From the NCBI GenBank assembly GCA_000004695.1, contig CM000155.2, forward strand, positions 1,920,001-1,984,000: 64,000 bases of DNA. The letters run 5' to 3'. The translations under genes were made by a program, and so were the position numbers. This DNA is from Dictyostelium discoideum. Taxonomy: Eukaryota. This document shows positions 17,753 through 64,000 of the stretch, piece after piece; position 1 is the first letter of the stretch; each line of letters starts with the position of its first letter. Under the pieces are notes generated by a model. It was not told where the DNA came from, ran no database searches, and was given only the letters and a program-made list of their open reading frames with translations.

Positions 17753-18921
17753 TTATTTTGGTAATGGAATTGGATTCATATTTCTTAACATAAATAATGG
17801 TGGTGCAATTTCATTATGAGTTTCACATTCAGCTAAATCATGACCAAATGGAATTCTACCCCATGTTTCTGATTGATATTCCTCTTCTAATGCAATTGTT
17901 TGATAAAGATTATCTAATCTTAATTTTCCATAATATAATGATAATGCAACTAAAAATGATTTTGATGATTGTGAAATTAATTGTAAACATACTAATTCCC
18001 AATTATTCATTGAATGTAAATGTCTTTCAATTTTCTAAATTTTTTTTTAAAAAAAAAAAATATATATTAATAAAAATATAAATATAAACTATCTATTTAA
18101 ATAAATTATAATTTATATATATATATTACATCTAATAATTCTTTTGGATGTTTTGAAATTGAAAGATGTGTTGAAATTGAAAATGGAATACCATAATATT
18201 CATTTGCAAATTGAAGTATTGGTTCATATAATTCACTTTGTAATTTTTTAAGTTTTGAATCATTCTTTTCTCTATTACAAATTGGATCTGTTGCTAAATG
18301 ATTAATAAACTCTCCAATGATTTTAAATCTACCTTCTGGTCTTACATCTAAACATGATATAATTGTTTGTGTCTTTTTTTTTATTTATTTAATTTTATTA
18401 GTATTATATTTTAAATTATATTATATATTTTTATATGTATGTATAAAACTTACAATTGGTAATCTAGATGGTTTAATATATTTTTCTTGAGCTCTCCATT
18501 CAGCAGCTACAGCATATGCAATTTCTTTTGAAGGTGTAATAATGACATGATTTGAAGGAGTTCTAATTTTTCTTTCATCAATTAATGGATAATAACCTTG
18601 GTCAGGATTTTCAGGTTCAGTTCTACACATACCAGCTGTTTTATACCATCTTAATGATGAACCATCACTTTTAACACCTTCTAATAAAACATCACCTTTT
18701 AAAAATTTTGAACTTTGTGGTTTTTCCATAACTTCTTTAACTATCTTTTTTTGTTCTTCTAATTTAATGCTTGCTTTTAATTCTTCTGATAATTCTACTG
18801 TATTATCATCTTTAATTATAAATTGAGTTTGATTGCTCTTATTATTAGTTGATGTTGTAGTGAATGTTTTTCTATTAGATAATAAAATGTTTTTATTAAT
18901 TAATCTTAATGATCTAATCAT
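17753..18921 (-). CDS. ATP synthase F1 assembly factor ATP12/ATPAF2 homolog. Exons are 18921..18454, 18372..18130 and 18034..17753.
   Basis: YYPLIDERKIRTPSNHVIITPSKEIAYAVAAEWRAQEKYIKPSRLPI and TIALEEEYQSETWGRIPFGHD match human ATPAF2 (KLKTPQAKLFTVPSEALAIAVATEWDSQ...LEEEYQIQKWGNIEWAHD). The GTAAGT donor at 18453..18448 and the GTAATA donor at 18129 join acceptors AG|ACACAA (18372) and TTTAG|AAAATT (18034). All junctions are phase 0. Confidence 0.8.
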
Positions 18922-26829: not shown

Positions 26830-26976
26830 TTAAGTATTAAAATCCATTAATTGAATATTTATATTTTTTATTGATTTAAATAAAATAATTAAATTTCCAA
26901 ATTCAAATGATAAATTACAAATACTTTTATTTGAATTTAAAATATTATTATCATTATTTGAATTAAGTTTTTCATG

Positions 26977-27011
<35 letters not shown>

Positions 27012-27477
27012 AAAATGATTCAATTTTAAAAATTATTTGATTATTTATTGATTGTTTTTGCACAATTTTTAAAATATTTGGATTTTGACAATTCCTTTTT
27101 AAAGTTTTATATATGTTTTCTAAAATATCGACCAATACTAGACCAAACATATCTTTTAGCTTTTTTGGTAATAAGTTAAAGTATATATTTTTTAAAGATA
27201 TTTCATCAATGGACCAATCATTTTTTGAGGATATAATTTCTTTTATATCATTCAATTTATTTCCAATTTTTTCTATATTTATTTCAATATTATTTTTTGT
27301 TTCTTTTGAAAAATATTCATTGTTTGTCAAATAAAATAAATTATGATTATTATATTTATAATTATTTTTAAATTGTTTATTTTCAATATCTTTATTGATT
27401 TTTAAATCATTTTTATTTTCTATTTTAAGACTATTTTCAATTAATTGTAAATTGGTTTTTAATTGATTTTCTTTCAT
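26830..27477 (-). CDS. Hypothetical small K/N/I-rich protein (215 aa) with a poly-Asp tract.
   Basis: An ATG-initiated ORF. It is low-complexity, which is typical for this genome. I recognise no family. Confidence 0.3.
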
Positions 27478-28216: not shown

Positions 28217-28288
28217 TAGCTTCTCTAGGTTTCGATCCTAGGACCTCGAGGTTATGGGCCTCGCACTCTACCCCTGAGTTAAGAAGCT
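28217..28288 (-). tRNA. Initiator tRNA-Met (anticodon CAT).
   Basis: The minus strand reads AGCTTCTTAACTCAGGGGTAGAGTGCGAGGCCCATAACCTCGAGGTCCTAGGATCGAAACCTAGAGAAGCTA. It has an A1:U72 end pair, three G:C pairs closing the anticodon stem, anticodon loop CCCATAA, and a T loop AUCGAAA (A54/A60). These are the eukaryotic initiator signatures. Confidence 0.85.
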
Positions 28289-28412: not shown

Positions 28413-28465
28413 GTCTCCCACTCTGAGTTAAGAAGCTGTCGATACAGGCTTGTTGAACATGATAT
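28413..28465 (-). pseudogene. Truncated duplicate of the 5' ~25 nt of tRNAi-Met plus ~25 bp of its 5' flank. It has no B box and no 3' half.
   Basis: GTCGATACAGGCTTGTTGAAC + AGCTTCTTAACTCAGAGTGGGAGAC mirrors 28262..28315 (GTCGATACAAGCTAGTTGAAC + tRNA 5' end). Confidence 0.5.
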
Positions 28466-28922
28466 CTCTTCAGAGAAAATATAATCACCACCCAAATATA
28501 AGGAAGCTATGCTTGTAAAAAAATAAAAAAAAAAAAAAAAAAAAAAGTTATCCATATTCAATTTAAAAAAAAAAAATAAAAAATAAAAAAATAAAAATTA
28601 CCCTTTTGGTTTTAACACATTCCATTTTATGACAAGTAATTGAAGTTTTTTTTTATTTTTTATTTTTATTGTAATAGATTTCAAAGTGATTACAATTGAT
28701 CAACAATTTCAATTTATTCTAATTTGATTTATTAAATAGTATAATAACATTATATTTTTAAAACATACTTTTTAATTCAAATAATAAAAATAAATTAATT
28801 AGTTTTTTTTTTATTTAATATATATTATTATAAGAATAATCCAATAAAATAATATCATGTATAAATAAATCAATTTTTTAAAATTTAGTATATGACTAAA
28901 AAAAATATTTTTTAATTTAATT

Positions 28923-29048
28923 ATTGTGAAAAACATTCAAGTTTGAGCACTTTTCAAAATTTGAAAATTATACATAATTTTATATGGGCTCCCATATAAA
29001 AATATTTTAAATTACAAAAAGTGCACAAATTTGAATGGTTTTCACAAT
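28923..29048. repeat. Imperfect inverted repeat. The 33-bp arms are 29 of 33 complementary, with a 60-bp spacer that contains a perfect palindrome TATATGGGCTCCCATATA.
   Basis: Arm 1 at 28923..28955 is ATTGTGAAAAACATTCAAGTTTGAGCACTTTTC. Arm 2 at 29016..29048 is AAAAAGTGCACAAATTTGAATGGTTTTCACAAT. The inner palindrome is at 28981..28998. Confidence 0.7.
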
Positions 29049-29202
29049 AAAAATAAAAAAAAAATTGAAAAAAAAATTATTTTTAAAAAAAATAAAATAT
29101 AAAAAATAAAAAATAAAAAAAAAAAATAAAAAAAATTAAAAAAAAAATGAAAAAGTTAAAAATTGAGAAAAATAATTTATTTCGGTCATTTTCGAATTTG
29201 AA

Positions 29203-29591
29203 ATGGAATCAGTAGAAACCACCACTCCCTCTAATTCAGAGATAAAATCTGTTGAAACTATTGTAGAGGAACAAAAAGTAAATGAAACCAATACAACATT
29301 AAACGCAGAAGTTGTTGAAACACCAACAAAAACTGAAGAAAAATCAAAAACCGAAATAACCAATGAAAATAAAGAAAGAAGTAGAGGATTAGAAGCTAAA
29401 ATTAAACCAGAATTTGTTTTACCTTTTAAAAAAATTGAAAAAGTTGAAGTTGATAAAGCTGCTAAAAAAAAAGAATTTAGAAATCAATTAAGAGAATCAA
29501 TGAATGATAAAGTAAGTAAAAAATAATAAAAAAATAATAATAATATATAATATATAATAATAATATATCATAATATAATTTTAATATTTAT

Positions 29592-29633
<42 letters not shown>

Positions 29634-31338
29634 ATGTCCAAAGATTAGTAAAGGATTAGTATGTGAATTTAATGAAACATGTAAATTTAGTCATGATGTT
29701 GAAAAATATTTAGCAAGTAAACCAAAATCAATTGGAATTTGTCAAAACTTTCAAACCTATGGAGAATGTAAATATGGATTAAATTGTTACTTTGGAGAAT
29801 GTCATATCGTTGATAATAAAACCATTGTAAACAAAGAATTAATTGGTAAAGTTGAACCAGTAAAAACTTTAAATGAAGTTTCAAATGAAATTCAAATTCA
29901 ATTAAAAACTAATAATTATCCATTCCCAAAGAGTGAAATTTATTTTAATGAAAATGGTATTTCTGTTAGACAAATTAAAGGTAGAAATAATAATAATAAT
30001 AAAAATAATAATAAACAAAATGATAATAAAAGAAAAGAAAATGAAAAAGATGATGATGATGATAAATTAAATAAAAAAATTAAGTTAGAAAATGAAAATA
30101 CTACAACAACAACTACTACTACTACTACTACAACAACTGAAACAACAGAAAAAACAGAAAAAACAGAAAAAACAGAAAAAACAGAAACAACAGAAACAAA
30201 AAAAGAAGAATTTAAACAAAGCAATGAAAATACAGAAATTGATATAATGACACCATTAAAAGCAAATGAGAAGAAAAGAATTAATTTTGAAAATCAATTA
30301 ATTTTAGCACCATTAACAACAGTTGGTAATTTACCATTTAGAAGAATTTGTAAGAGATTAGGTGCAGATATTACAATTGGTGAGATGGCATTAACAACCA
30401 AATTATTGGAAGGTACAAAATCAGAATTAGCATTATTAAAGAGACATCCATGTGAAGATAAATTTGGTGTTCAAATTTGTGGATCCTATGTTGACGCAGC
30501 TGTTAAATGTGCAGAGTTTATTGAGAATGAAATCGATGCTGATTTCGTTGATATTAATTCAGGTTGTCCAATTGATTTAGTTTGTAATATGGGTGCAGGT
30601 GCAGCATTAATGGAGAGACCTAAAAAGGTTGAACAATTGCTTAGAGGTATTTCAAGTAGTTTGTCATGTCCAACCACAATTAAAATAAGAATTGGTAAAT
30701 CAGAGGATGCCCCAACCGCTCATAAATTAATTCCATCACTTGGTGAATGGGGTGCTTGTGCAGTCACTTTACATGGTCGTAGTAGAGCACAAAGATATAG
30801 TCGTCTTGCAAATTGGGATTATGTTAAACAATGTTCAGAGGTTTCTTCAATTCCTTTGATTGGTAATGGCGACATTTACAACTATCAAGATGTTGTAAAC
30901 ATTTACGATAGTTCAAAGGTCTCCTCAATCATGATTGCCAGAGGTGCACTCATTAAACCTTGGATTTTCACAGAAATTAAAGAAAAGAGAGAATGGGATA
31001 TCTCTGCCTCTGAAAGATTGGATTTCATTCGTGACTTTGCAAATTATGGTTTAGATCATTGGGGTTCCGATAGAATCGGTGTTGATAATACTAGAAAATT
31101 CCTTTTAAATTGGTTATCTTTCTCTCATCGTTATATTCCAGTTGGTTTATTAGATAAAGTTCACTATATGAATGAAAGACCTCCAGCTTATTTCGGTCGT
31201 TCAGATTTAGAAACTTTATTAGCTTCCACTCAAGTTAAAGATTGGATTAAAATTACTGAAATGTTTTTAGGTCCTGTAACTTCTGATTATAGTTTTGTAC
31301 CAAAGCATAATTCAAATTCTTATGAATCTCAAGGTTAA
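29203..31338 (+). CDS. tRNA-dihydrouridine synthase 3 (DUS3/DUS3L) homolog with tandem CCCH zinc fingers. Exons are 29203..29511 and 29632..31338.
   Basis: [21 protein letters not shown] and [23 protein letters not shown] are two CCCH fingers. [30 protein letters not shown]...VDINSGCP...[17 protein letters not shown] is the DUS catalytic domain. The GTAAGT donor at 29512 and an A-rich acceptor at 29631 join in phase 0. An internal (GAAAAAACA)4 repeat encodes [12 protein letters not shown]. Confidence 0.85.
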
Positions 31339-45400: not shown

Positions 45401-48400
45401 AAGTTTATCAATCCAAACATTATCACCTAATGTATAGAATGGAGTTAAACCTACATTGACATTAGTTAAATTGGTAGCATTAACATTGAAACAATATGTT
45501 GTTACATTTTTAGAGGTTGATAAAATAAATGGAGAGTCTAAAGATGTATTTACAAATTTGTAAAGTGCAGAATTAATTGGACCTGCGCTCATACAATAGT
45601 TACCTGGTGCAACATCAACAAATTGGTAGAATCCATTTGCGTTTGTAATGGTTGAATTGATTTGTTTTCCTTGTGAATCTAAAAGTGTCATGGTAATGTT
45701 TGGAACACCAGCCGATGTTGGTAAACGTTTACCAGTATTTAATGGATCTAACCAAGCTGTATCACCAACAGTCAAAAGTGGAGTGAGACCAAGGTTGGCA
45801 TTAGTAATTGATGATGTTGTAAGGTCGAAACAATAGATTGTACTCTTGTTAAATGGTGAATCTTGAGATTGAATAACTTGTTGATAGTGTGGTGGAATAA
45901 TCATCTTGATACAATATGATCCTGGTACTTGATCTTTAAATGCGTACTTACCGTTTTCATCTGTAATTGTGTTGGCAATGGAAGTTCCATTTGGTGAGAA
46001 CAATGAAACTGAAACACCTGGTAATAATGGTTCATCTAATTCTTTAATACCATTATTATTCTTTTCGATCCAAACATATTGACCAATATCAAGTGTTGAT
46101 ACGAAACCTGGATTAACATTAGTGTTGTTATATGGTATATGACCATTTAATCTAACACAATACTGACCATTAATGAATGGAGAATCTTTGCTACCTGTTA
46201 CTGGAATTGTACCTAATGGAGTTGTTGCATTGAGACAATATTTACCCATTAATAATGGATAGAACATGTAGTTACCATTAATATCTGTTTTGGTTGTTTC
46301 TATAACATTTCCTAGTGGGTCAATAAGTGATAATTCTACATCGGAAAGGAATTCATTATCTTGTCTCTTTCCATCGTTATTAATATCTAACCAAGCAATA
46401 TAACCAACTCCAAATATAGTATCCAAACCAAGGTTAACATCTGACATATCACCAAATAATGGGAAACAAAAACCACCTGTAGAGTTGGTAACTGAATCAT
46501 CAGAGTCGACAACAACAATATATCCTGGTGGAACTTCAAATTGAACACAATAGTCTGCACTTGGTAATAAATTAGGTACAACATAGCCACCTTTATCATC
46601 AGATCTTGTAGCAGCTAAAATGTTTCCACTTACCTTGTCATATAATTGTACTGTTACATTTGGAAGAAGTAGATCACTAGATGAAAGGAATTTTGATAAA
46701 TCTAAATCGACCCATGTTGTACCATCGACCACAAGGTATGGAATCAAACCAATATTGGCATTCAATACATTAGAATCTGTGACTGCGAAACAATATTGAA
46801 GTTCTGCTAATGGATTAGTTGGAGATGTATCAGTGAAGTTTTTGAATGGCGATACTTCAGAATATGAATCTGCTAAATAATTGGATGGTACTGTAGCTCT
46901 TACGCAATAACTACCTGGTTGTATATCATTGAATTGATATTTACCAGAAGAGTTGGTAATAGTTGTTTCAATTAAATTACCATTGTTATCATAGAGAGAC
47001 ATTGTTACATTTGGTACCAATAATGAATCATTTCTACGAACTCCATTATTTAAATTATCTAACCATGCATCAGAACCAATATTATAAAGTGGAATTAAAC
47101 CTAAATTGGCATTTGTAATTGATTTATCAAGTAAATCGAAACAATATTTGACATCTGAATCGAATGGAGAGTCTTTTGATTGTGCAACTTGTTCATAGTG
47201 TGGTGGAATAACCATTTGTACACAATATGATCCTGGTACTTGATCTTTTAATGCATATTTACCATTTTCATCTGTTACAAGATTGGCAATTGATGTTCCA
47301 TTTGGTGAGAAAATATGAATTTGTATGCCTGGTAATAATGGTTCATCTGATTCTTCTTTACCATTGTTATTCTTATCGATCCAAACATATTGACCAATAT
47401 CGAGTGTTGGTACAAAACCTGGATTGACATCAGTTCTATCAATTGGTTGTGGTCCTGTGAATGTTAAACAATATTTATTATTGACAAAGAGATTATCTGA
47501 ACTACCAGTAACTGGAATTGAACCTATTGGAGTTGTTGCAATGATACAATAATCACCTTGTGGAAGGTTATCAAATTTGTAATTACCTGATTCATTGGTT
47601 GTTGTAGTTTGTAATACTTTACCATTTGAATCTTGTAATGATAACTCTACACCTGGTAAGAACTCATTGTCTTCTTTATTACCATTATTATTCTTATCTA
47701 ACCATGATACTGATCCGATACTATTGAGTGGAGAAATACCAATATTGATATTTGGATTTGATTGTGTTAATAAGAAACAATATTTACCTGTTGTTTGGTC
47801 AACAACTGAGTCTTTTGATGGTTGTACGAAATGATATTTAATTGGAGTTGTTGTTTCAATACAATAATTGCCTGGTAATAAATGGTCAAAGTGGTAGTTT
47901 CCATTTGAATCTGTTTGTGTAGTAGATGATTGACCTGATCCAGTATTGGTAAGTTTAATTTGGAATTCTGATTTACCAACATCAACTGGTTTATCGTAGA
48001 CATTGTTATTATTTGAATCAATCCAAACAATAGTTCCAATTTTAAGTAATGGAATTAAACCAAGATCTTGATTATCTGTTGGTCCACTAACTGTGAAACA
48101 TGATTCAACATCTGATTGGGAAGATAATGAAAATGGTGAGTCTGAAGATTTGTTAACTGGGGAATAATCCGAAGGAACAGATACTTTGATACAATAATCG
48201 CCTGGCTCAACATCATCGAATTGATATTTACCAATATCGTCAGTTGGAATTGATTTAATAATTGTATTTCCATTTTTATCAGTAAGTGTTAATACAATAT
48301 TTGGAATACCTGGGGAATTTTCTAATTGAATACCAGTGTTGAATGAATCTAACCAAACAGTATCACCAATTGGATAAAGTGGAATTAAACCAAGATTGGC

Positions 48401-51400
48401 GTTTGCAATTGATTTATCTACTAAATCGAAACAATATTTGACATCTGAATCGAATGGTGAATCTTCTGATTGTGCAACTTGTTTATAATGATCTGGAATA
48501 ACCATTTGTACACAATATGGTCCTGGTACTTGATCTTTTAATGCGTATTTACCATTTTCATCTGTTACAAGATCTGCGATCTTAGTTCCATTTGGTGATG
48601 TGATAATAACTTGAACACCTGGTAATAATGGTTCATCTGGTTCTTCTTTACCATTGTTATTCTTATCGATCCAAACATATTGACCAATATCGAGTGTTGA
48701 TACAAAACCTGGATTGACATCAGTTCTATCGATTGGTTGTGGTCCTGTGAATGTTAAACAATATTTATTATTGACAAATAGATTATCTGGACTGCTTGTT
48801 ACTGGAATTGAACCGATTGGAGTTGTTGCGACGATACAATAATCACCTGGTAATAAATTATCAAATTTGTAATTACCTGATTCATCAGTTGTTGTTGTAT
48901 CTAATACTTTGCCACTTGGATCTTGTAATGATAACTCTACACCTGGTAAGAATTCATTATCTTCTTTCTTACCATTATTATTTTTATCTAACCATGATAC
49001 TGATCCGATACTATTGAGTGGTACTAAACCGATATTGATATTTGGATTTGATTGTGTTAATTTGAAACAATATTCACCTGTTGAGTCGACAACTGAATCA
49101 TCTGAAGTTACAACAAATTGGTATTGATCTGGTTGTGTTACTTTGATACAATAATCACCTGCTAATAAATGATTGAAATTATAGTTACCATCAACATCTG
49201 TTTGAATTGTTGATGTTTCACCATTACCACTGTTGGTTAATGTAATTGATACATCTGATTTACCGATATCACTTGGTTGTTCAAACTTATCATTGTTATT
49301 TGAATCAATCCAAACAATGGTACCGATTTCATAGAATGGTGATAAACCTAAGTTTTGATTATCTAATGGTCCTGAAACTTTGAAGCATGATTTAACAATT
49401 GATTCATTCGAAGTTGGAGAGAATGGTGAATCTGATGATGTATTGACTGCTTGATAGGTATCACTTGGAAATTCTGCTTCAATACAATAATCACCTGGTG
49501 GAACATCTTCGAATTGATATTTACCATCTGGTCCTGAAGTTGTTGATTGAATAACTTTATCATCTTTATCGACTAAATTTAATTCAATACCTTCGACACC
49601 TGGTGAATCATCAGTACGTTTACCAGTATTGAACGGATCTAACCAAACACTATCACCAATTGGATAAAGTGGAATTAAACCAAGATTGGCGTTTGTAATT
49701 GATGTATCTACTAAATCGAAACAATATTTGACATCTGAATCGAATGGTGAATCTTCTGATTGTGCAACTTGTTTATAATGATCTGGAATAATCATTTGTA
49801 CACAATATGATCCTGGTACTTGATCTTTTAATGCATATTTACCATTTTCATCTGTTACAAGATTGGCAATTGATGTTCCATTTGGTGATGTGATAATAAC
49901 TTGAACACCTGTTAATAATGGTTCATCTGATTCTTCTTTACCATTGTTATTCTTATCGATCCAAACATATTGACCAATATCGAGTGTTGATACAAAACCT
50001 GGATTGACATCAGTTCTATCGATTGGTTGTGGTCCTGTGAATGTTAAACAATATTTATTATCGACAAAGAGATTGTCTGGACTACCAGTAACTGGAATTG
50101 AACCGATTGGAGTTGTTCCGACGATACAATAATCACCTGGTAATAAATTATCAAATTTGTAATTACCTGATTCATCAGTTGTTGTTGTTGTATCTAATAC
50201 TTTACCATTTGAATCTTGTAATGATAATTCTACACCTGGTAAGAATTCATTGTTTTCTCTCTTACCATTATTATTCTTATCTAACCATGATACTGATCCG
50301 ATACTATTGAGTGGTACTAAACCGATATTGATATTTGGATTTGATTGTGTTAATTTGAAACAATATTCACCTGTTGAGTCGACAACTGAATCATCTGAAG
50401 TTACAACAAATTGATATTTATTTGGTTCTGTTGCTTTGATACAATAATCACCTGCTAATAAATGATTGAAATTGTATTCCCCATCAGCATCTGTTTGAAT
50501 TGTTGATGTTTCACCATTACCACTGTTGGTTAATGTAATTGATACATCTGATTTTTTAATATCACTTGGTTGTTCAAACTTATCATTGTTATTTGAATCA
50601 ATCCAAACAAATGTACCGATTTCATAGAATGGAGTAACACCAATTGGTGGTTTGACATCATGATCAGTGATTGTGAAACAATATTTAACTGTGACGAAAC
50701 TATCATTTGTTGAATCAGCCGAGAATGGTGAATCTGATGATGTATTGACTGGTTTGTATTGATCTTTTGGAATATCAGCTTCAACACAATAATCACCTGG
50801 TGGAACATCTTCGAATTGATATTTACCATCTGGTCCTGATTTGGTGTTTGTAATTTCATTTCCATCTTTATCAGTTAATCTAATTGTAATGTCTGATAAT
50901 GGTGGTGAATCATCAGTTTGTTTACCAGTATTGAATGGATCTAACCAAACTTTATCACCAACGTTGAATAATGGAATTAAACCAAGATTGGCATTTGTAA
51001 TTGATTTATCTACCAAATCGAAACAATATTTGACATCTGAATCGAATGGTGAGTCTTCTGATTGTGCATCTTGTTTATAATGTGGTGGAATAACCATTTG
51101 TACACAATATGATCCTGGTACTTGATCTTTTAATGCATAATTACCATTTTCATCTGTTACAAGATCTGCGATCTTAGTTCCATTTGGTGATGTGATAATA
51201 ACTTGAACACCTGGTAATAATGGTTCATCTGGTTCTTCTTTACCATTGTTATTCTTATCGATCCAAACATATTGACCAATATCGAGTGTTGATACAAAAC
51301 CTGGATTGACATCATATCTATCGATTGGTTGTGGTCCTGTGAATGTTAAACAATATTTATTATTGACAAATAGATTGTCTGGACTACCAGTAACAGGGAT

Positions 51401-54400
51401 TGAACCGATTGGAGTTGTAGCGACAATACAATAATCACCTGGTAATAATTCGTAAAATAGGTAATAACCTGATTCATCGGTTGTTGTTGTTTCAAATAAA
51501 GTACCATTTGGATCTTGTAATGATAATTCTACACCTGCTAATGATTCTCCAGCAGTTGCTAAACCATCATTATCTTTATCTAACCAAGCGAATGTTCCGA
51601 TACTATTGAGTGGTACTAAACCGATATTGATATTTGGATTTGATTGTGTTAATTTGAAACAATATTCACCTGTTGAATTTACAACTGAATCATCTGAAGT
51701 TACAACAAATTGATATTTATTTGGTTCTGTTACTTTGATACAATAATCACCTGCTAATAAATTATTGAATTTGTAATTACCATTTGAGTCTGTTTGAATT
51801 GTTGATGTTTCACCATTACCACTGTTGGTTAATGTAATTGATACATCTGATTGTTTAATATCACTTGGTTGTTCAAACTTATCATTGTTATTTGAATCAA
51901 TCCAAACAAATGTTCCGATTTCGAGGAATGGAATTAAACCAAGATTGGCATTGTTAACTGGCTCTGTAACTGTGAAACAATATCTAGATTTAATTGGTTC
52001 AATCGAAGAAGTTGGGAGTGGAAGAACTACCGAGAATGGTGAATCTGATGAGGTATTTTCTACTTGATATTTTCTTGGGACAGATGCTTCAATACAATAA
52101 TCGCCTGGTGGAACATCTTCGAATTGATATTTACCATTTGGTCCTGATGCAGTTGATTGAATTGAATTTCCGTATTTATCAATGAGTGTGAGTGGAATAC
52201 CTTCTACTCCTGGTGAATCATCAGTACGTTTACCAGTATTGAATGGATCTAACCAAACACTATCACCAAGGTTGTAAAGTGGAACTAAACCAAGATTTGC
52301 GTTTGTAATTGATTTATCTTCTAAATCGAAACAATATTTGACATCTGAATCGAATGGTGAATCTTCTGATTGGTTAACTTGTTTATAATGATCTGGAATA
52401 ATCATTTGTACACAATATGATCCTGGTACTTGATCTTTTAATGCATATTTACCATTTTCGTCTGTAAAAAGATTGGCAATTGATGTTCCATTTGGTGATG
52501 TGATAATAACTTGAACACCTGGTAATAATGGTTCATCTGGTTCTTCTTTACCATTGTTATTCTTATCGATCCAAACATATTGACCAATATCGAGTGTTGG
52601 TACAAAACCTGGATTGACATCAGTTCTATCGATTGGTTGTGGTCCTGTGAATGTTAAACAATATTTATTATTGACAAAGAGATTGTCTGGACTACCAGTA
52701 ACTGGAATTGAACCGATTGGAGTTGTTCCGACGATACAATAATCACCTGGTAATAAATTATCAAATTTGTAATTACCTGATTCATCGGTTGTTATTGTTT
52801 GTAATACAGTGCCATTTGGATCTTGTAATGATAATTCTACACCTTCTAATGATTCTTCAGCAGTTGCTAAACCATCATTATCTTTATCTAACCAAGCGAA
52901 TGTTCCGATACTATTGAGTGGTACTAAACCGATATTGATATTTGGATTTGATTGTGTTAATTTGAAACAATATTCACCTGTTGAGTCGACAACTGAATCA
53001 TCTGAAGTTACAACAAATTGATATTTATTTGGTTCTGTTGCTTTGATACAATAATCACCTGCTAATAAATGATTGAAATTGTATTCACCATCAGCATCTG
53101 TTTGAATTGTTGATGTTTCACCATTACCACTGTTGGTTAATGTAATTGATACATCTGATTTTTTTATATCACTTGGTTGTTCAAACTTATCATTGTTATT
53201 TGAATCAATCCAAACAAATGTACCGATTTCATAGAATGGAGTAACACCAATTGGTGGTTTGACATCATGATCAGTGATTGTGAAACAATATTTAACTGTG
53301 ACGAAACTATCATTTGTTGAATCAGCCGAGAATGGTGAATCTGATGATGTATTGACTGGTTTGTATTGATCTTTTAGAATATCAGCTTCAACACAATAAT
53401 CACCTGGTGGAACATCTTCGAATTGGTATTTACCATCTGGTCCTGATTTGGTGTTTGTAATTTCATTTCCATCTTTATCAGTTAATCTAATTGTAATGTC
53501 TGATAATGGTGGTGAATCATCAGTTTGTTTACCAGTATTGAATGGATCTAACCAAACTTTATCACCAACGTTGAATAATGGAATTAAACCAAGATTGGCA
53601 TTTGTAATTGATTTATCTACCAAATCGAAACAATATTTGACATCTGAATCGAATGGTGAGTCTTCTGATTGTGCATCTTGTTTATAATGTGGTGGAATAA
53701 CCATTTGTACACAATATGATCCTGGTACTTGATCTTTTAATGCATAATTACCATTTTCATCTGTTACAAGATCTGCGATCTTAGTTCCATTTGGTGATGT
53801 GATAATAACTTGAACGCCTGGTAATAATGGTTCGTCTGATTCTTCTTTACCATTGTTATTCTTATCGATCCAAACATATTGACCAATATCAAGTGTTGAT
53901 ACAAAACCTGGATTGACATCATATCTATCGATTGGTTGTGGTCCTGTGAATGTTAAACAATATTTATTATTGACAAATAGATTATCTGGACTGCTTGTTA
54001 CTGGAATTGAACCGATTGGAGTTGTTGCAACGATACAATAATCGCCTGGTAATAAATTATCAAATTTGTAATTACCTGATTCATCAGTTGTTGTTGTTTC
54101 TAATACTTTACCATTTGAATCTTGTAATGATAACTCTACACCTGGTAAGAATTCATTGTCTTCTTTATTACCATTATTATTCTTATCTAACCATGATACT
54201 GATCCGATACTATTGAGTGGTACTAAACCGATATTGATATTTGGATTTGATTGTGTTAATTTGAAACAATATTCACCTGTTGAGTCGATAACTGAATCAT
54301 CTGAAGTTACAACAAATTGGTATTGATCTGGTTGTGTTGCTTTGATACAATAATCACCTGCTAATAAATGATTGAAATTATAGTTACCATCAACATCTGT

Positions 54401-57400
54401 TTGAATTGTTGATGTTTCACCATTACCACTGTTGGTTAATGTAATTGATACATTTGATTTTCCGATATCACTTGGTTGTTCAAATTTATCATTGTTATTT
54501 GAATCAATCCAAACAATGGTACCGATTTCATAGAATGGTGATAAACCTAAGTTTTGATTATCTAATGGTCCTGAAACTTTGAAGCATGATTTAACAATTG
54601 ATTCATCTGAAGTTGGAGAGAATGGTGAATCTGATGATGTATTGACTGGTTTGTATTGATCATTTGGAATTGTTGCTTCAATACAATAATCACCTGGTGG
54701 AACATCTTCGAATTGATATTTACCATCTGGTCCTGATGTTGTTGATTGAATAACTTTACCATCTTTATCGACTAAATTTAATTCAATACCTTCTACACCT
54801 GGTGAATCATCAGTACGTTTACCAGTATTGAATGGATCTAACCAAACAGTATCACCAATTGGATAAAGTGGAATTAAACCAAGATTGGCATTTGTAATTG
54901 ATTTATCTACCAAATCGAAACAATATTTGACATCTGAATCGAATGGTGAGTCTTCTGATTGTACAACTTGTTTATAATGTGGTGGAATAACCATTTGTAC
55001 ACAATATGGTCCTGGTACTTGATCTTTTAATGCATAATTACCATTTTCATCTGTTACAAGATCTGCGATCTTAGTTCCATTGGGTGATGTGATAATAACT
55101 TGAACACCTGGTAATAATGGTTCATCTGATTCTTCTTTACCATTGTTATTCTTATCGATCCAAACATATTGACCAATATCGAGTGTTGATACAAAACCTG
55201 GATTGACATCAGTTCTATCGATTGGTTGTGGTCCTGTGAATGTTAAACAATATTTATCATCTACAAAGAGATTATCTGGACTGCTTGTTACTGGAATTGA
55301 ACCGATTGGAGTTGTTGCAACGATACAATAATCACCTGGTAATAAATTATCAAATTTGTAATTACCTGATTCATCGGTTGTTGTTGTATCTAATACTTTA
55401 CCATTTGAATCTTGTAATGATAATTCTACACCTGGTAAAAATTCATTATCTTCTTTATTACCATTATTATTCTTATCTAACCATGATACTGATCCGATAC
55501 TATTGAGTGGTACTAAACCGATATTGATATTTGGATTTGATTGTGTTAATTTGAAACAATATTCACCTGTTGAGTCGACAACTGAATCATCTGAAGTTAC
55601 AACAAATTGATATTTATTTGGTTCTGTTACTTTGATACAATAATCACCTGCTAATAAATGATTGAAATTATAGTTACCATCAACATCTGTTTGAATTGTT
55701 GATGTTTCACCATTACCACTGTTGGTTAATGTAATTGATACATCTGATTTTTTTATATCACTTGGTTGTTCAAAGTTATCATTGTTATTTGAATCAATCC
55801 AAACAAATGTACCGATTTCATAGAATGGAGTAACACCAATTGGTGGTTTGACATCATGATCAGTGATTGTGAAACAATATTTAACTGTGACGAAATTATC
55901 ATTTGTTGAATCGACTGAGAATGGTGAATCTGATGATGTATTGACTGGTTTGTATTGATCTTTTAGAATATCAGCTTCAACACAATAATCACCTGGTGGA
56001 ACATCTTCGAATTGATATTTACCATCTGGTCCTGATTTGGTGTTTGTAATTTCATTTCCATCTTTATCAGTTAATCTAATTGTAATGTCTGATAATGGTG
56101 GTGAATCATCAGTTTGTTTACCAGTATTGAATGGATCTAACCAAACTTTATCACCAACTTTGAATAATGGAATTAAACCAAGATTGGCATTTGTAATTGA
56201 CTCATCGATTAAATCGAAACAATATTTGACATCTGAATCGAATGGTGAGTCTTCTGATTGTGCAACTTGTTTATAATGTGGTGGAATAACCATTTGTACA
56301 CAATATGATCCTGGTACTTGATCTTTTAATGCATAATTACCATTTTCATCTGTTACAAGATCTGCGATCTTAGTTCCATTGGGTGATGTGATAATAACTT
56401 GAACACCTGGTAATAATGGTTCATCTGATTCTTCTTTACCATTGTTATTCTTATCGATCCAAACATATTGACCAATATCGAGTGTTGATACAAAACCTGG
56501 ATTGACATCATATCTATCGATTGGTTGTGGTCCTGTGAATGTTAAACAATATTTATCGTCGACAAATAGATTATCTGGACTGCTTGTTACTGGAATTGAA
56601 CCGATTGGAGTTGTTGAGACGATACAATAATCACCTGGTAATAAATTATCAAATTTGTAATTACCTGATTCATCGGTTGTTGTTGTATCTAATACTTTAC
56701 CATTTGAATCTTGTAATGATAATTCTACACCTGGTAAAAATTCATTATCTTCTTTATTACCATTATTATTCTTATCTAACCATGATACTGATCCGATACT
56801 ATTGAGTGGTACTAAACCAATATTGATATTTGGATTTGATTGTGTTAATTTGAAACAATATTCACCTGTTGAGTTGACAACTGAATCATCTGAAGTTACA
56901 ACAAATTGGTATTGATCTGGTTGTGTTACTTTGATACAATAATCACCTGCTAATAAATGATTGAAATTATAGTTACCATCAACATCTGTTTGAATTGTTG
57001 ATGTTTCACCATTACCACTGTTGGTTAATGTAATTGATACATTTGATTTTCCGATATCACTTGGTTGTTCAAATTTATCATTGTTATTTGAATCAATCCA
57101 AACAATGGTACCGATTTCATAGAATGGTGATAAACCTAAGTTTTGATTATCTAATGGTCCTGAAACTGCGAAACATGATTTAACGATTGATTCATCTGAA
57201 GTTGGAGAGAATGGTGAATCTGATGATGTATTGACTGCTCGTAAGATATCATTTGAAATTGTTGCTTCAATACAATAATCACCTGGTGGAACATCTTCAA
57301 ATTGATATTTACCATTTGGTCCTGAAGTTGTTGATTGAATAACTTTACCATCTTTATCGACTAATTGTAATTCAATACCTTCGAGACCTGGTGAATCATC

Positions 57401-60400
57401 AGTACGTTTACCAGTATTGAATGGATCTAACCAAACAGTATCACCAATTGGATAAAGTGGAACTAAACCGAGATTTGCGTTTGTAATTGATTCATCGATT
57501 AAATCGAAACAATATTTGACATCTGAATCGAATGGTGAGTCTTCTGATTGTGCAACTTGTTTATAATGTGGTGGAATAATCATTTGTATACAATATGATC
57601 CTGGTACTTGATCTTTTAATGCATAATTACCATTTTCATCTGTTACAAGATCTGCGATCTTAGTTCCATTGGGTGATGTGATAATAACTTGAACACCTGG
57701 TAATAATGGTTCATCTGATTCTTCTTTACCATTGTTATTCTTATCGATCCAAACATATTGACCAATATCGAGTGTTGATACAAAACCTGGATTGACATCA
57801 TATCTATCAATTGGTTGTGGTCCTGTGAATGTTAAACAATATTTATCATCAACAAATAGATTATCTGGACTGCTTGTTACTGGAATTGAACCGATTGGAG
57901 TTGTTGCGACGATACAATAATCACCTGGTAATAAATTATCAAATTTGTAATTACCTGATTCATCAGTTGTTGTTGTTTCTAATACTTTACCATTTGAATC
58001 TTGTAATGATAATTCTACACCTGGTAATGATTCTCCCTCACTTGCTAAACCATCATTATCTTTATCTAGCCATGCGAACGATCCGATACTATTGAGTGGT
58101 ACTAAACCAATATTGATATTTGGATTTGATTCTGTTAATTTGAAACAATATTCACCTGTTGAGTTGACAACTGAATCATCTGAAGTTACAACAAATTGGT
58201 ATTTATTTGGTTCTGTTGCTTTGATACAATAATCACCTGCTAATAAATGATTGAAATTATAGTTACCATCAACATCTGTTTGAATTGTTGATGTTTCACC
58301 ATTACCACTGTTGGTTAATGTAATTGGAACATCTGATTGTTTAATATCACTTGGTTGTTCAAACTTATCATTGTTATTTGAATCAATCCAAACAAATGTT
58401 CCGATTTCGAGGAATGGAATTAAACCAAGATTGGCATTGTTAACTGGCTCTGTAACTGTGAAACAATATCTAGATTTAATTGGTTCAATTGAAGAAGTTG
58501 GGAGTGGAAGAACTACCGAGAATGGTGAATCTGATGAGGTATTTTCTACTTGATATTTTCTTGGGACAGATGCTTCAATACAATAATCACCTGGTGGAAC
58601 ATCTTCGAATTGATATTTACCATTTGGTCCTGATGCAGTTGATTGAATTGAATTTCCGTATTTATCAATGAGTGTTAGTGGAATACCTTCTACACCTGGT
58701 GAATCATCAGTACGTTTACCAGTGTTGAATGGATCTAACCAAACAGTATCACCAAGGTTGTAAAGTGGAACTAAACCAAGATTTGCGTTTGTAATTGATT
58801 TATCTTCTAAATCGAAACAATATTTGACATCTGAATCGAATGGTGAGTCTTCTGATTGTGAAACTTGTTTATAATGATCTGGAATAATCATTTGTACACA
58901 ATATGATCCTGGTACTTGATCTTTTAATGCGTATTTACCATTTTCATCTGTTACAAGATCTGCGATCTTAGTTCCATTTGATGATGTGATAATAACTTGA
59001 ACACCTGGTAATAATGGTTCATCTGATTCTTCTTTACCATTGTTATTCTTATCGATCCAAACATATTGACCAATATCAAGTGTTGATACAAAACCTGGAT
59101 TGACATCAGTTCTATCGATTGGTTGTGGTCCTGTGAATGTTAAACAATATTTATTATTGACAAATAGATTATCTGGACTGCTTGTTACTGGAATTGAACC
59201 GATTGGAGTTGTTGCAACGATACAATAATCACCTGGTAATAAATTATCAAATTTGTAATTACCTGATTCATCGGTTGTTGTTGTATCTAATACTTTACCA
59301 TTTGAATCTTGTAATGATAATTCTACACCTGGTAAAAATTCATTGTCTTCTTTCTTACCATTATTATTCTTATCTAACCATGATACTGATCCGATACTAT
59401 TGAGAGGTACTAAACCAATATTGATATTTGGATTTGATTCTGTTAATTTGAAACAATATTCACCTGTTGAGTCGACAACTGAATCATCTGAAGTTACAAC
59501 AAATTGATATTTATTTGGTTCTGTTGCTTTGATACAATAATCACCTGCTAATAAATGATTGAAATTATAGTTACCATCGACATCTGTTTGAATTGTTGAT
59601 GTTTCACCATTACCACTGTTGGTTAATGTAATTGATACATCTGATTTTTTTATATCACTTGGTTGTTCAAACTTATCATTGTTATTTGAATCAATCCAAA
59701 CAAATGTACCGATTTCATAGAATGGAGTAACACCAATTGGTGGTTTGACATCATGATCAGTGATTGTGAAACAATATTTAACTGTGACGAAATTATCATT
59801 TGTTGAATCGACTGAGAATGGTGAATCTGATGATGTATTGACTGGTTTGTATTGATCTTTTGGAATATCAGCTTCAACACAATAATCACCTGGTGGAACA
59901 TCTTCGAATTGGTATTTACCGTCTGGTCCTGATTTAGTGTTTGAATTTTCATTTCCATCTGGTCTTGATTTGGTTTTTGTAATTTCATTTCCATCTTTAT
60001 CAGTTAATCTAATTGTAATGTCTGATAATGGTGGTGAATCATCAGTTTGTTTACCAGTATTGAATGGATCTAACCAAACTTTATCACCAACGTTGAATAA
60101 TGGAACTAAACCAAGATTGGCATTTGTAATTGATTTGTCGTCTAAATCGAAACAATATTTGATATCTGAATCGAATGGTGAGTCTTCTGATTGTGAAACT
60201 TGTTTATAATGTGGTGGACTAACCATTTGTACACAATATGATCCTGGTACTTGATCTTTTAATGTGTATTTACCATTTTCATCTGTTACAAGATTGGCAA
60301 TTGATGTTCCATTTGGTGATGTGATAATAACTTGAACACCTGGTAATAATGGTTCATCTGATTCTTCTTTACCATTGTTATTCTTATCGATCCAAACATA

Positions 60401-63400
60401 TTGACCAATATCGAGTGTTGATACAAAACCTGGATTGACATCAGTTCTATCGATTGGTTGTGGTCCTGTGAATGTTAAACAATATTTATCATCAACAAAT
60501 AGATTATCTGGACTGCTTGTTACTGGAATTGAACCGATTGGAGTTGTTACAACGATACAATAATCGCCTGGTAATAAATTATCAAATTTGTAATTACCTG
60601 ATTCATCAGTTGTTGTTGTATCTAATACTTTACCATTTGAATCTTGTAATGATAATTCTACACCTGGTAAAAATTCATTATCTTCTTTATTACCATTATT
60701 ATTCTTATCTAACCATGATACTGATCCGATACTATTGAGTGGTACTAAACCAATATTGATATTTGGATTTGATTGTGTTAATTTGAAACAATATTCACCT
60801 GTTGAGTCGACAACTGAATCATCTGAAGTTACAACAAATTGATATTTATTTGGTTCTGTTGCTTTGATACAATAATCACCTGCTAATAAATGATTGAAAT
60901 TGTATTCACCGTCAACATCTGTTTGAATTGTTGATGTTTCACCATTACCACTGTTGGTTAATGTAATTGATACATCTGATTTTCCAATATCACTTGGTTG
61001 TTCGAATCTATCATTGTTATTTGAATCAATCCAAACAATGGTACCGATTTCATAGAATGGAGTAACACCAATTGGTGGTTTGACATCATGATCAGTGATT
61101 GTGAAACAATATCTAACTGTGACGAAATTATCATTTGTTGAATCGACTGAGAATGGTGAATCTGATGATGTATTGACTGGTTTGTATTGATCTTTTGGAA
61201 TATAAGCTTCAACACAATAATCACCTGGTGGAACATCTTCGAATTGGTATTTACCATCTGGTCCTGAAGTTGTTGATTGAATAACTTTACCATCTTTATC
61301 AGTTAATCTAATTGTAATGTCTGATAATGGTGGTGAATCATCAGTTTGTTTACCAGTATTGAATGGATCTAACCAAACTTTATCACCAACTTTGAATAAC
61401 GGAACTAAACCAAGATTGGCATTTGAAATTGATTCATTGACTAAATCGAAACAATATTTGACATCTAAATCGAATGGTGAGTCTTCTGATTGTGCAACTT
61501 GTTTATAATGTGGTGGAATAATCATTTGTACACAATATGATCCTGGTACTTGATCTTTTAATGTGTATTTACCATTTTCATCTGTTACAAGATTGGCAAT
61601 TGATGTTCCATTTGGTGATGTGATAATAACTTGAACACCTGGTAATAATGGTTCATCTGGTTCTTCTTTACCATTGTTATTCTTATCGATCCAAACATAT
61701 TGACCAATATCGAGTGTTGATACAAAACCTGGATTGACATCAGTTCTATCGATTGGTTGTGGTCCTGTGAATGTTAAACAATATTTATTATTGACAAATA
61801 GATTATCTGGACTGCTTGTTACTGGAATTGAACCGATTGGAGTTGTTGTGACAATACAATAATCACCTGGTAATAAATTATCAAATTTGTAACTACCTGA
61901 TTCATCGGTTGTTGTTGTATCTAATACTTTACCATTTGAATCTTGTAATGATAATTCTACACCTGGTAAAAATTCATTGTCTTCTTTCTTACCATTATTA
62001 TTCTTATCTAACCATGATACTGATCCGATACTATTGAGTGGTACTAAACCGATATTGATATTTGGATTTGATTGTGTTAATTTGAAACAATATTCACCTG
62101 TTGAGTCGACAACTGAATCATCTGAAGTTACAACAAATTGGTATTGATCTGGTTGTGTTGCTTTGATACAATAATCACCTGCTAATAAATGATTGAAATT
62201 ATAGTTACCATCAACATCTGTTTGAATTGTTGATGTTTCACCATTACCACTGTTGGTTAATGTAATTGATACATCTGATTTTAAAACATCACTTGGTTGT
62301 TCGAATTTACCATTGTTATTTGAATCAATCCAAACCATGGTACCAATTTCATAGAATAGTGATAAACCTAAGTTTTGATTGTCTAATGGTCCTGAAACTG
62401 CGAAACATGATTTAACGATTGATTCATCTGAAGTTGGAGAGAATGGTGAATCTGATGATGTATTGACTGGTTTGTATTGATCATTTGGAATTGTTGCTTC
62501 AATACAATAATCACCTGGTGGAACATCTTCGAATTGATATTTACCATCTGGTCCTGATGTTGTTGATTGAATGACTTTGCCATCTTTATCGACTAATTGT
62601 AATTCAATACCTTCGACACCTGGTGAATCATCAGTACGTTTACCAGTATTGAATTGATCTAACCAAACAGTATCACCAATTGGATATAATGGGATTAAAC
62701 CAAGATTGGCATTTGTAATTGACTCATCGATTAAATCGAAACAATATTTGACATCTGAATCGAATGGAGATTCTTCTGATTGTGCAACTTGTTTATAATG
62801 ATCTGAAATAATCATTTGTACACAATATGATCCTGGTACTTGATCTTTTAATGCGTATTTACCATTTTCATCTGTTACAAGATCTGCGATCTTAGTTCCA
62901 TTTGATGATGTGATAATAACTTGAACACCTGGTAATAATGGTTCATCTGGTTCTTCTTTACCATTGTTATTCTTATCGATCCAAACATATTGACCAATAT
63001 CAAGTGTTGATACAAAACCTGGATTGACATCAGTTCTATCGGTTGGTAGTGGTCCTGTGAATGTTAAACAATATTTACCATCGACAAATAGATTATCTGG
63101 ACTGCTTGTTACTGGAATTGAACCGATTGGGGTTGTTGCAGAAATACAATAATCACCTGGAAGTAAATTATCAAAGTAATAGTTACCATCGGAATCTGTT
63201 GTTATTGTTTGAATAACAATACCATTTGGATCTTGTAATGATAATTCTACACCTGGTAAAAATTCATTGTCTTGTCTCTTACCATCATTATTCTTATCTA
63301 ACCATGATACTGATCCGATACTATTGAGTGGTACTAATCCAATATTGATATTTGGATTTGATTCTGTTAATTTGAAACAATATTCACCTGTTGAGTCGAC

Positions 63401-64000
63401 AACTGAATCATCTGAAGTTACAACAAATTTGTATTGATCTGGTTCTGTTACCTTGATACAATAATCACCTGCTAATAAATGATTGAAATTGTATTCACCG
63501 TCAGTATTGGAGATTGTTGAATACATTTCACCATTACCACTGTTGGTTAATGTAATTGATACATTTGATTTTCCGATATCATTTGGTTGTTCAAACTTAT
63601 CATTGTTATTTGAATCAATCCAAACAATGGTACCGATTTCATAGAATGGTGATAAACCTAAGTTTTGGTTATCTAATGGTCCTGAAACTGCGAAACATGA
63701 TTTAACAATTGAATTATCTGAAGTTGGAGAGAATGGTGAATCTGATGATGTATTAACTGATTGATAGGTATCATTTGGAATTGTTGCTTCAATACAATAA
63801 TCACCTGGTGGAACATCTTCGAATTGATATTTACCATCTGGCCCTGATGTTGTTGATTGAATAACTTTACCATCTTTATCGACTAATTGTAATTCAATAC
63901 CTTCGAGACCTGGTGAATCATCAGTACGTTTACCAGTATTGAATGGATCTAACCAAACAGTATCACCAATTGGATATAATGGAATTAAACCAAGATTGGC
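39495..64000 (-). CDS. Giant colossin-like protein, at least 8000 aa in this window. The N-terminus lies beyond coordinate 64000. Exons are >64000..43273 (repeat array) and 43162..39495 (unique C-terminal ~1220 aa). Dictyostelium colossin A is the nearest family I recall.
   Basis: The frame of the 6758-aa ORF stays open to the window edge. The M at 63526 is an internal Met. Donor G|GTAAAG at 43272 and acceptor TTTAG|GT at 43163 give split codon G|GT and splice ...PQSFIIG to DTIWIDSNNN..., which reproduces the repeat motif (PIGDTVWLD). Repeated modules carry LPGVxVxLxDxNGxxIxTTxTDxxGxYxFxxLxPGDYC, typical of Cna B-type / SdrD B-like beta-sandwich domains. Confidence 0.8.
43300..64000 (-). repeat. 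Coding tandem repeat array. There are at least 16 units of ~1290-1303 bp (about 430 aa, 5 modules each) at about 90-99% nucleotide identity, and the array continues past the window edge.
   Basis: Out-of-frame ORF copies recur with a fixed period, for example MLLELNRLELL... at 48796, 50098, 52708, 53995, 55240, 56539, 57829, 59182 and 60472. Identical 79-aa copies occur at 50841, 53448 and 56037. The protein units are near-identical (PFYEIGTIVWIDSNNNDKFEQPSDI...). Confidence 0.9.

Follow-up and report, generated by a model that had tools for sequence, protein, structure and literature searches.

The window analysed here is a 64-kb stretch of chromosome 6 of Dictyostelium discoideum AX4, and the feature under study lies in a very AT-rich intergenic spacer that runs from a tRNA-Met gene to the ATG of DUS3. 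The A1:U72 pair and AUCGAAA T-loop of the tRNA-Met gene fit a eukaryotic initiator tRNA. The DUS3 locus, which may be DDB_G0292686, was mentioned under that identifier nowhere in a full-text literature search. The genes and flanking features are as follows:

26830–27477, minus strand: open reading frame with 100% identity to DDB_G0292684 of D. discoideum AX4
28217–28288, minus strand: tRNA-Met gene, matched by Rfam
29050–29202, plus strand: A-rich DUS3 leader, conserved in relatives, with the element described below at its 5′ edge
29203–29511, plus strand: DUS3 exon 1, open frame, beginning with the ATG
29512–29631, plus strand: DUS3 intron
29632–31338, plus strand: DUS3 exon 2, open frame

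An inverted repeat is located in this spacer, 155–280 bp upstream of the DUS3 ATG, as the first-pass annotation had correctly stated, and 635 bp from the tRNA-Met gene, in agreement with the ~650 bp given there. The outer arms reported at 28923–28955 and 29016–29048 were confirmed on the sequence to be complementary at 29 of 33 positions. A 32-nt arm pattern, allowing up to 3 mismatches, occurred at two places in the window, both belonging to this repeat, where shuffled sequences gave an expectation of 0.00. The repeat can be extended to 59 nt on either side (28908–28966 and 29005–29063) at 80% complementarity, the outermost 15 nt being no more than a T-run opposite an A-run. The 18-mer TATATGGGCTCCCATATA (28981–28998) had been described as a perfect palindrome, but it departs from its reverse complement at the two bases in the middle and consists of 8-bp arms flanking CT. 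It lies within a longer sub-palindrome with 11-bp arms, TTTTATATGGG at 28978–28988 and CCCATATAAAA at 28991–29001. The symmetry centres of the inner and outer repeats are 4 nt apart, with an 8-nt indel between the arms, and apart from this indel and a few bulges the region between the outer arms pairs as well.

As delimited by the comparison with related genomes given below, the element is 124 bp long. When it was aligned with its own reverse complement, 102 of 132 columns were identical, and no open reading frame of at least 80 amino acids overlaps it. Its parts are as follows:

28922–28923, unstranded: left TA, candidate target-site duplication, the empty sites holding one TA
28924–29047, unstranded: inserted palindromic element of 124 bp, TTGTGAAAAAC...GGTTTTCACAA, missing as one block from the two closest relatives (L012 and L013)
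28924–28954, plus strand: left terminal inverted repeat, 31 nt, complementary to 29017–29047 at 28 of 31 positions
28951–28967, unstranded: side near-palindrome TTTTCAAAATTTGAAAA, within the left half of the element
28978–29001, unstranded: central sub-palindrome, with non-complementary CT at 28989–28990 between its 11-bp arms, forming the hairpin tip
29017–29047, minus strand: right terminal inverted repeat, 31 nt, pairing with 28924–28954
29048–29049, unstranded: right TA, candidate target-site duplication on the same empty-site basis

The earlier suggestion that this structure could fold into a long hairpin was borne out. The predicted RNA fold of the plus strand had a free energy of −51.0 kcal/mol (z = −9.65, with 0 of 200 shuffled sequences as good), and the values were −48.2 kcal/mol (z = −8.7) for RNA of the minus strand and −35.6 kcal/mol (z = −9.4) for DNA. 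Among all 4257 overlapping 150-nt segments of the 64-kb window, the one holding the repeat was the most stable (−49.3 kcal/mol versus a mean of −20.1, sd 7.7), at a GC content of just 0.19. A chance origin of the repeat was ruled out by the arm-pattern shuffles, the z scores of the fold and this window-wide stability scan.

The runners-up in the stability scan were recurring local RNA folds of a tandem repeat at ~48100–63600, which holds at least 12 copies of a ~1.3-kb unit that are 88–100% identical. Because all unit spacings (1290–1335) are multiples of three, this region suggests a giant in-frame repeat in a very large coding gene that would run off the window.

Empty sites in related genomes

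The locus was compared with five syntenic loci, all of which hold TRAPPC8, tRNA-Met and DUS3: L012 (GCA_054859355.1, labelled D. discoideum), L013 (GCA_054859205.1, D. cf. discoideum), L014 and L015 (further related assemblies), and L002 (D. firmibasis, GCA_036169595.1). The gene DDB_G0292684 was called in all of them except D. firmibasis. Another D. discoideum assembly, GCA_054883475.1, was 100% identical to AX4 over the 356 nt compared, the whole hairpin included, and the hairpin is therefore not an assembly artefact.

Assembly GCA_054859205.1 contains two DUS3 loci, the syntenic one (L013, 6732–8900) and a non-syntenic one (L001, 9281–11288). The DNA of the second copy is 89% identical to AX4; its first exon is different, and the annotation splits the copy into two genes. 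L001 was rejected as a comparison locus since this non-syntenic copy is misleading. It was also found that L012, although labelled D. discoideum, shares only 91% identity with AX4 across 14 kb at the DUS3 locus. This divergence is about equal to that of the two D. cf. discoideum assemblies; GCA_054883475.1, by contrast, matches AX4 fully over its 356 nt. The label D. discoideum probably takes in cryptic species.

Both flanks of the element were aligned with L012 and L013 (alignments A3 and A4). The left 100 nt were 92% identical to AX4 in L012 and 87% in L013, and the right 100 nt were 81 and 88% identical, respectively. In both relatives the 124 bp between these flanks were gone as one block, arms and centre alike. 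With a slash marking each junction, AX4 reads ...AATTA/TTGTGAAAA...TTTTCACAA/TAAAA, whereas the relatives read ...TTA/AAAA with a single TA. In wider context, the AX4 sequence is ...TATTTTTTAATTTAATTA/TTGTGAAAAAC...GGTTTTCACAA/TAAAAATAAAA..., the empty site of L013 is ...TATTTTTTAATTTAATTA/AAAAAAAAAA..., and that of L012 is ...TATTTTTTAATTTGGTTA/AAAATAATAA.... The AX4 sequence thus differs by the 124-bp element plus a second TA, a difference that can be parsed equally well as a blunt insertion of 126 bp because TA is self-complementary. The presence of TA on either side in AX4 and of one TA in L012 and L013 is weak as an indication of a target-site duplication, as it amounts to 2 bp in DNA of ~85% A+T. 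The empty sites of L012 and L013 carry no excision footprint.

The remaining three loci, L014, L015 and L002, could be aligned only from the A-rich DUS3 leader onward; D. firmibasis, although syntenic, has diverged so far upstream of 29068 that no empty site can be defined there. A trace of the element was looked for in all five loci, and none was found.

Over 13–17 kb, the pairwise identities were 91.0% for AX4 and L012, 89.7% for AX4 and L013, and 89.3% for L012 and L013. Given these values, L012 and L013 do not form a sister pair that excludes AX4, and a single gain on the AX4 branch therefore accounts for the pattern more parsimoniously than two losses, each precise and identical, would. 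The arms resemble no neighbouring sequence, and an inverted duplication formed in situ was rejected because the empty sites lack arms and centre alike and nothing nearby matches the arms. The locus holds an insertion with exact borders, the empty sites have a single TA, and the arms do not derive from neighbouring sequence. Read from these alignments, the feature is a clean 124-bp insertion at a TA in the AX4 lineage that is missing from its closest relatives, and being absent from them as a whole it is not a conserved element.

Two further differences were seen in the same spacer. At 28413–28460 there is a copy of the first ~15 nt of tRNA-Met together with ~22 nt of its upstream flank (core 36/38 identical), lying ~125 bp upstream of the real gene; this duplication is old, since a similar fragment is present in L013. 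A ~200-bp segment of AX4 at 28440–28645, with an A28 run at 28517–28547, has no counterpart in L012 or L013 and on this comparison is another lineage-specific indel between the tRNA gene and DUS3, in which a retroelement fragment could have left the A-run as its tail.

The related loci also hold palindromes of their own. In D. firmibasis (L002, 18074–18500), a ~425-bp near-perfect palindrome abuts the orthologous initiator tRNA-Met gene on its 5′ side, with perfect 92-nt arms at 18165–18256 and 18314–18405 and a fold of −78 kcal/mol per 150 nt; its sequence is unrelated to the AX4 element and is absent from AX4 and from L012 to L015. A private AT-rich hairpin is located upstream of DUS3 in L014 (5001–5150), with a copy of a mini-palindrome (TTTTGAAAATTTTG...CAAAATTTTCAAAA) on either side, and another lies downstream of DUS3 in L013 (6081–6230). 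Because D. firmibasis, L014 and L013 each hold unrelated palindromes, private palindromic insertions seem to be a recurrent kind of change, and strong AT-rich hairpins were encountered at about one per 20–60 kb.

Origin of the insertion

We consider the best explanation, at somewhat better than even probability, to be a non-autonomous palindromic DNA element of the MITE or foldback type that was inserted at a TA in the AX4 lineage. The sequence has terminal inverted repeats at both ends, it is small and non-coding, and an unoccupied site with conserved flanks exists; the private, unrelated palindromes in the corresponding spacers of related species also count in its favour. A MITE or DNA-transposon remnant had been proposed in the first-pass annotation, and this proposal gained positive support from the clean presence and absence of the element and from the single-TA empty sites. 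A MITE family would show many copies; in the sequence covered, the element occurs once in the 64 kb of AX4 and, at this same locus, once in 8.8 kb of GCA_054883475.1, and no copy was found in ~150 kb from six related Dictyostelium loci. A scan of metagenome, prokaryote and viral collections with the arms gave no match, but these negatives carry no weight because the collections hold no Dictyostelium genome. Eight matches to the 20-nt centre in the same collections were dismissed as chance, as they had neither the extended centre nor the arms.

In the mechanism that we propose, the element would have been inserted at a TA upstream of DUS3 after the AX4 lineage split from its nearest sequenced relatives, most likely by cut-and-paste transposition. 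A transposase supplied in trans would have recognised the terminal inverted repeats of ~31 nt, and integration at the TA would have duplicated it. The mobility of the element, the transposase and the reading of the TA as a target-site duplication are our inferences from the structure of the site. Since its insertion, the element has probably been carried along as a passenger. In its DNA form a cruciform could be extruded, and read-through on the plus strand from an upstream start would yield an imperfect hairpin of ~51 bp, which has the stem size and stability of a Dictyostelium pri-miRNA.

Counting against a MITE, the element is palindromic throughout, with no unique core enclosed by its terminal repeats. 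Target-site duplications of 3, 4 or 8 bp, of the PIF, piggyBac and hAT types, respectively, were looked for on reading the sequence and are absent. The DNA transposons described from D. discoideum (Tdd, DDT and thug) have transposases unlike known families (PMC5633606), and text searches of the literature found no MITE described in this species. For these two reasons no plausible parent element is known, and a one-off capture of palindromic DNA at a break stays a serious rival.

According to that rival, which we judge unlikely, the insertion is not a transposon at all and has neither family nor function: palindromic filler or templated DNA would have been captured during double-strand break repair in the AX4 lineage. 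The element is indeed single-copy in all the sequence searched, its 2-bp flank could reflect chance or microhomology, and private, unrelated palindromes recur in these AT-rich spacers at ~1 per 20–60 kb. However, snap-back or hairpin-primed repair should copy adjacent sequence, and neither arm matches the flanks; moreover, the borders are clean and symmetric, with the long terminal repeats ending exactly at TA on each side. If sister copies exist, a MITE-type family would be added to the D. discoideum repeat catalogue, in which none was found described, and recent DNA-transposon activity would be shown for the lineage of the laboratory strain. The insertion in addition provides a clear natural case of a long Dicer-substrate hairpin arising beside a gene in one step, which bears on the very fast miRNA turnover reported between D. 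discoideum and D. firmibasis.

Possible hairpin RNA or DUS3 regulation, and known systems

A structured non-coding RNA had also been among the earlier proposals. Its fold held up very well, whereas no Rfam family other than tRNAs was matched, either locally at E ≤ 10 or window-wide at the gathering score, and the sequence is missing both from the closest relatives and from the published miRNA lists that were searched. Because it is missing from these relatives, it is not conserved as an RNA. A more specific version, which we regard as quite unlikely, is that the element is at present a hairpin-RNA locus: Pol II would transcribe the plus strand from an upstream T-rich/G motif, perhaps into DUS3, and the Dicer-like enzyme DrnB would cut the hairpin to 21-nt RNAs, making it a young miRNA or hairpin-siRNA gene. 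The candidate start is as follows:

28646–28671, plus strand: T-rich 25-mer followed by G28671, resembling the pri-miRNA start motif, 252 nt upstream of the hairpin and outside the insertion

A T-rich motif followed by G has been reported at the start sites of D. discoideum pri-miRNAs (PMC6161686), and the spacing of 252 nt compares with published values of 116 (mir-1177) and 281 (mir-1176). A T-run lies at the same place in L012. There are 11 plus-strand sites of this motif in the 64 kb, so that proximity by chance has a probability of ~5–15%, and T-rich motifs and T-runs are ordinary promoter features.

The fold itself fits a miRNA precursor in several respects. The hairpin is ~130 nt in total length, its lower stem has 30 bp interrupted solely by one 2×2 and one 1×1 internal loop, and a model transcript of 532 nt, running from the T-rich/G motif to the DUS3 ATG, retained it as a domain of its own. 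Its minimum free energy is −0.37 kcal/mol/nt at 37 °C and −0.50 at 22 °C, compared with a span of −0.51 to −0.73 among the D. discoideum miRNA hairpins (105–180 nt) in the literature, although this places it at the weak end of the published range. Of the precursor features listed in PMC6161686, the element shows an imperfect hairpin, a free energy under −0.2 kcal/mol/nt and a duplex of ~21 nt that is mostly paired. In addition, pri-mir-1177 runs into its downstream gene, and thug-S shows that repeat-derived miRNAs exist. The youth of the element is no objection, because the majority of D. discoideum miRNAs lie between genes and lack conservation even in D. firmibasis (PMC11014262).

Against a hairpin-RNA gene, Liao 2018, Meier 2016 and Edelbroek 2024 list no such sequence in their miRNA tables or supplements, and searches with 11–15-mers of the element gave no match in the full-text literature searched or in the supplements of these three miRNA papers. 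The G:U pairs, one per strand, give no strand preference. The locus upstream of DUS3 also goes unmentioned in the supplements of the lncRNA paper.

The mobile-element and hairpin-RNA readings could both apply. In that combination, which we think improbable, an undescribed and recently active family of TA-integrating MITEs would require a transposase beyond those of Tdd, DDT and thug, and its copy in the upstream transcript of DUS3 would be a newborn DrnB substrate, that is, a transposon-born miRNA gene with its empty ancestral site preserved in sister genomes.

A third role that had been put forward, that of a palindromic protein-binding site, was not sustained for DUS3. As a cis-regulatory or core-promoter element, the insertion would act through divergent TATAAAA boxes, a GGGCTCCC core and two octamers resembling the DUSE, whose consensus is [AT]CCCA[CT]AA; we consider this very unlikely. 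The distance from the ATG would suit such a site, GGGCTCCC stands out as a rare G+C island in surroundings of ~15% GC, TATAAAA stands beside the centre on both strands, and TCCCATAT fits the DUSE consensus at 7 of 8 positions. However, the element is absent from the DUS3 promoters of all five relatives (L012, L013, L014, L015 and L002), in which the proximal leader is conserved, and because these orthologous promoters lack it, DUS3 regulation does not need it. TATA-like strings are trivial at this base composition, and the two DUSE matches are imperfect (7/8 and 6/8). A distance rule places the DUSE ~60 nt upstream of a non-coding RNA or of a like-oriented TGTG box (PMC7919456), but at ~55–60 nt the sequence CACA follows here, i.e., TGTG on the opposite strand, and no non-coding RNA was found ~60 nt downstream on either strand (Rfam, E ≤ 10). 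A DUSE-driven non-coding RNA gene, such as a Class I RNA or snRNA, was rejected on these grounds: the imperfect octamers, the wrong orientation of TGTG and the lack of a downstream RNA gene. For annotation, the point is a negative one: neither DUS3 nor the initiator tRNA gene has a conserved regulator in this palindrome.

The leader downstream of the element was aligned in L012 to L014 and is 79% identical to D. firmibasis from 29068 onward. Within it, the ~45 nt just upstream of the ATG (29155–29202, GAGAAAAATAATTTATTTCGGTCATTTTCGAATTTGAA) hardly vary across the range from AX4 to D. firmibasis. With conservation far above that of the remaining spacer, this stretch is likely to be a functional leader or core-promoter block.

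Finally, an ancestral element lost by precise deletion from the relatives is extremely improbable. Palindromes are unstable and tend to be lost through slippage between short repeats that flank them, such as the TA on both sides here, but the pairwise identities would demand two independent deletions with identical end points, and no remnant is present in L012, L013, L014, L015 or L002.

The preferred reading, a mobile palindromic element, can be set against three known systems. The first comprises the TA-targeting MITEs (Stowaway-like, Tc1/mariner-derived) and foldback elements, which the AX4 element resembles in being AT-rich, non-coding and in the size range of ~100–300 bp, and in its terminal inverted repeats, long hairpin, flanking TA and intact TA at the empty site. 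It differs from them in being palindromic over its whole length, and no second copy or parent transposon was found in the sequence searched. Its termini (TTGTGAAAA...) are presumably unlike those of Stowaway or Tc1 elements. [quoted passage not shown]

The second system is the set of D. discoideum DNA transposons Tdd, DDT and thug, which are class II elements with inverted terminal repeats and reside in the same genome. Copies of thug-S give rise to miRNAs, and the thug-S gene holds an intron.

The third system is formed by the D. discoideum pri-miRNAs, such as mir-1177, upstream of DDB_G0287713, and the thug-S miRNAs. The AX4 element differs from these in its lower GC content and somewhat weaker fold, but it is like them in being an intergenic, imperfect hairpin of ~130 nt with a similar energy at 22 °C, in its orientation and closeness upstream of a protein gene, in the T-rich/G motif that precedes it, and in its lineage specificity.
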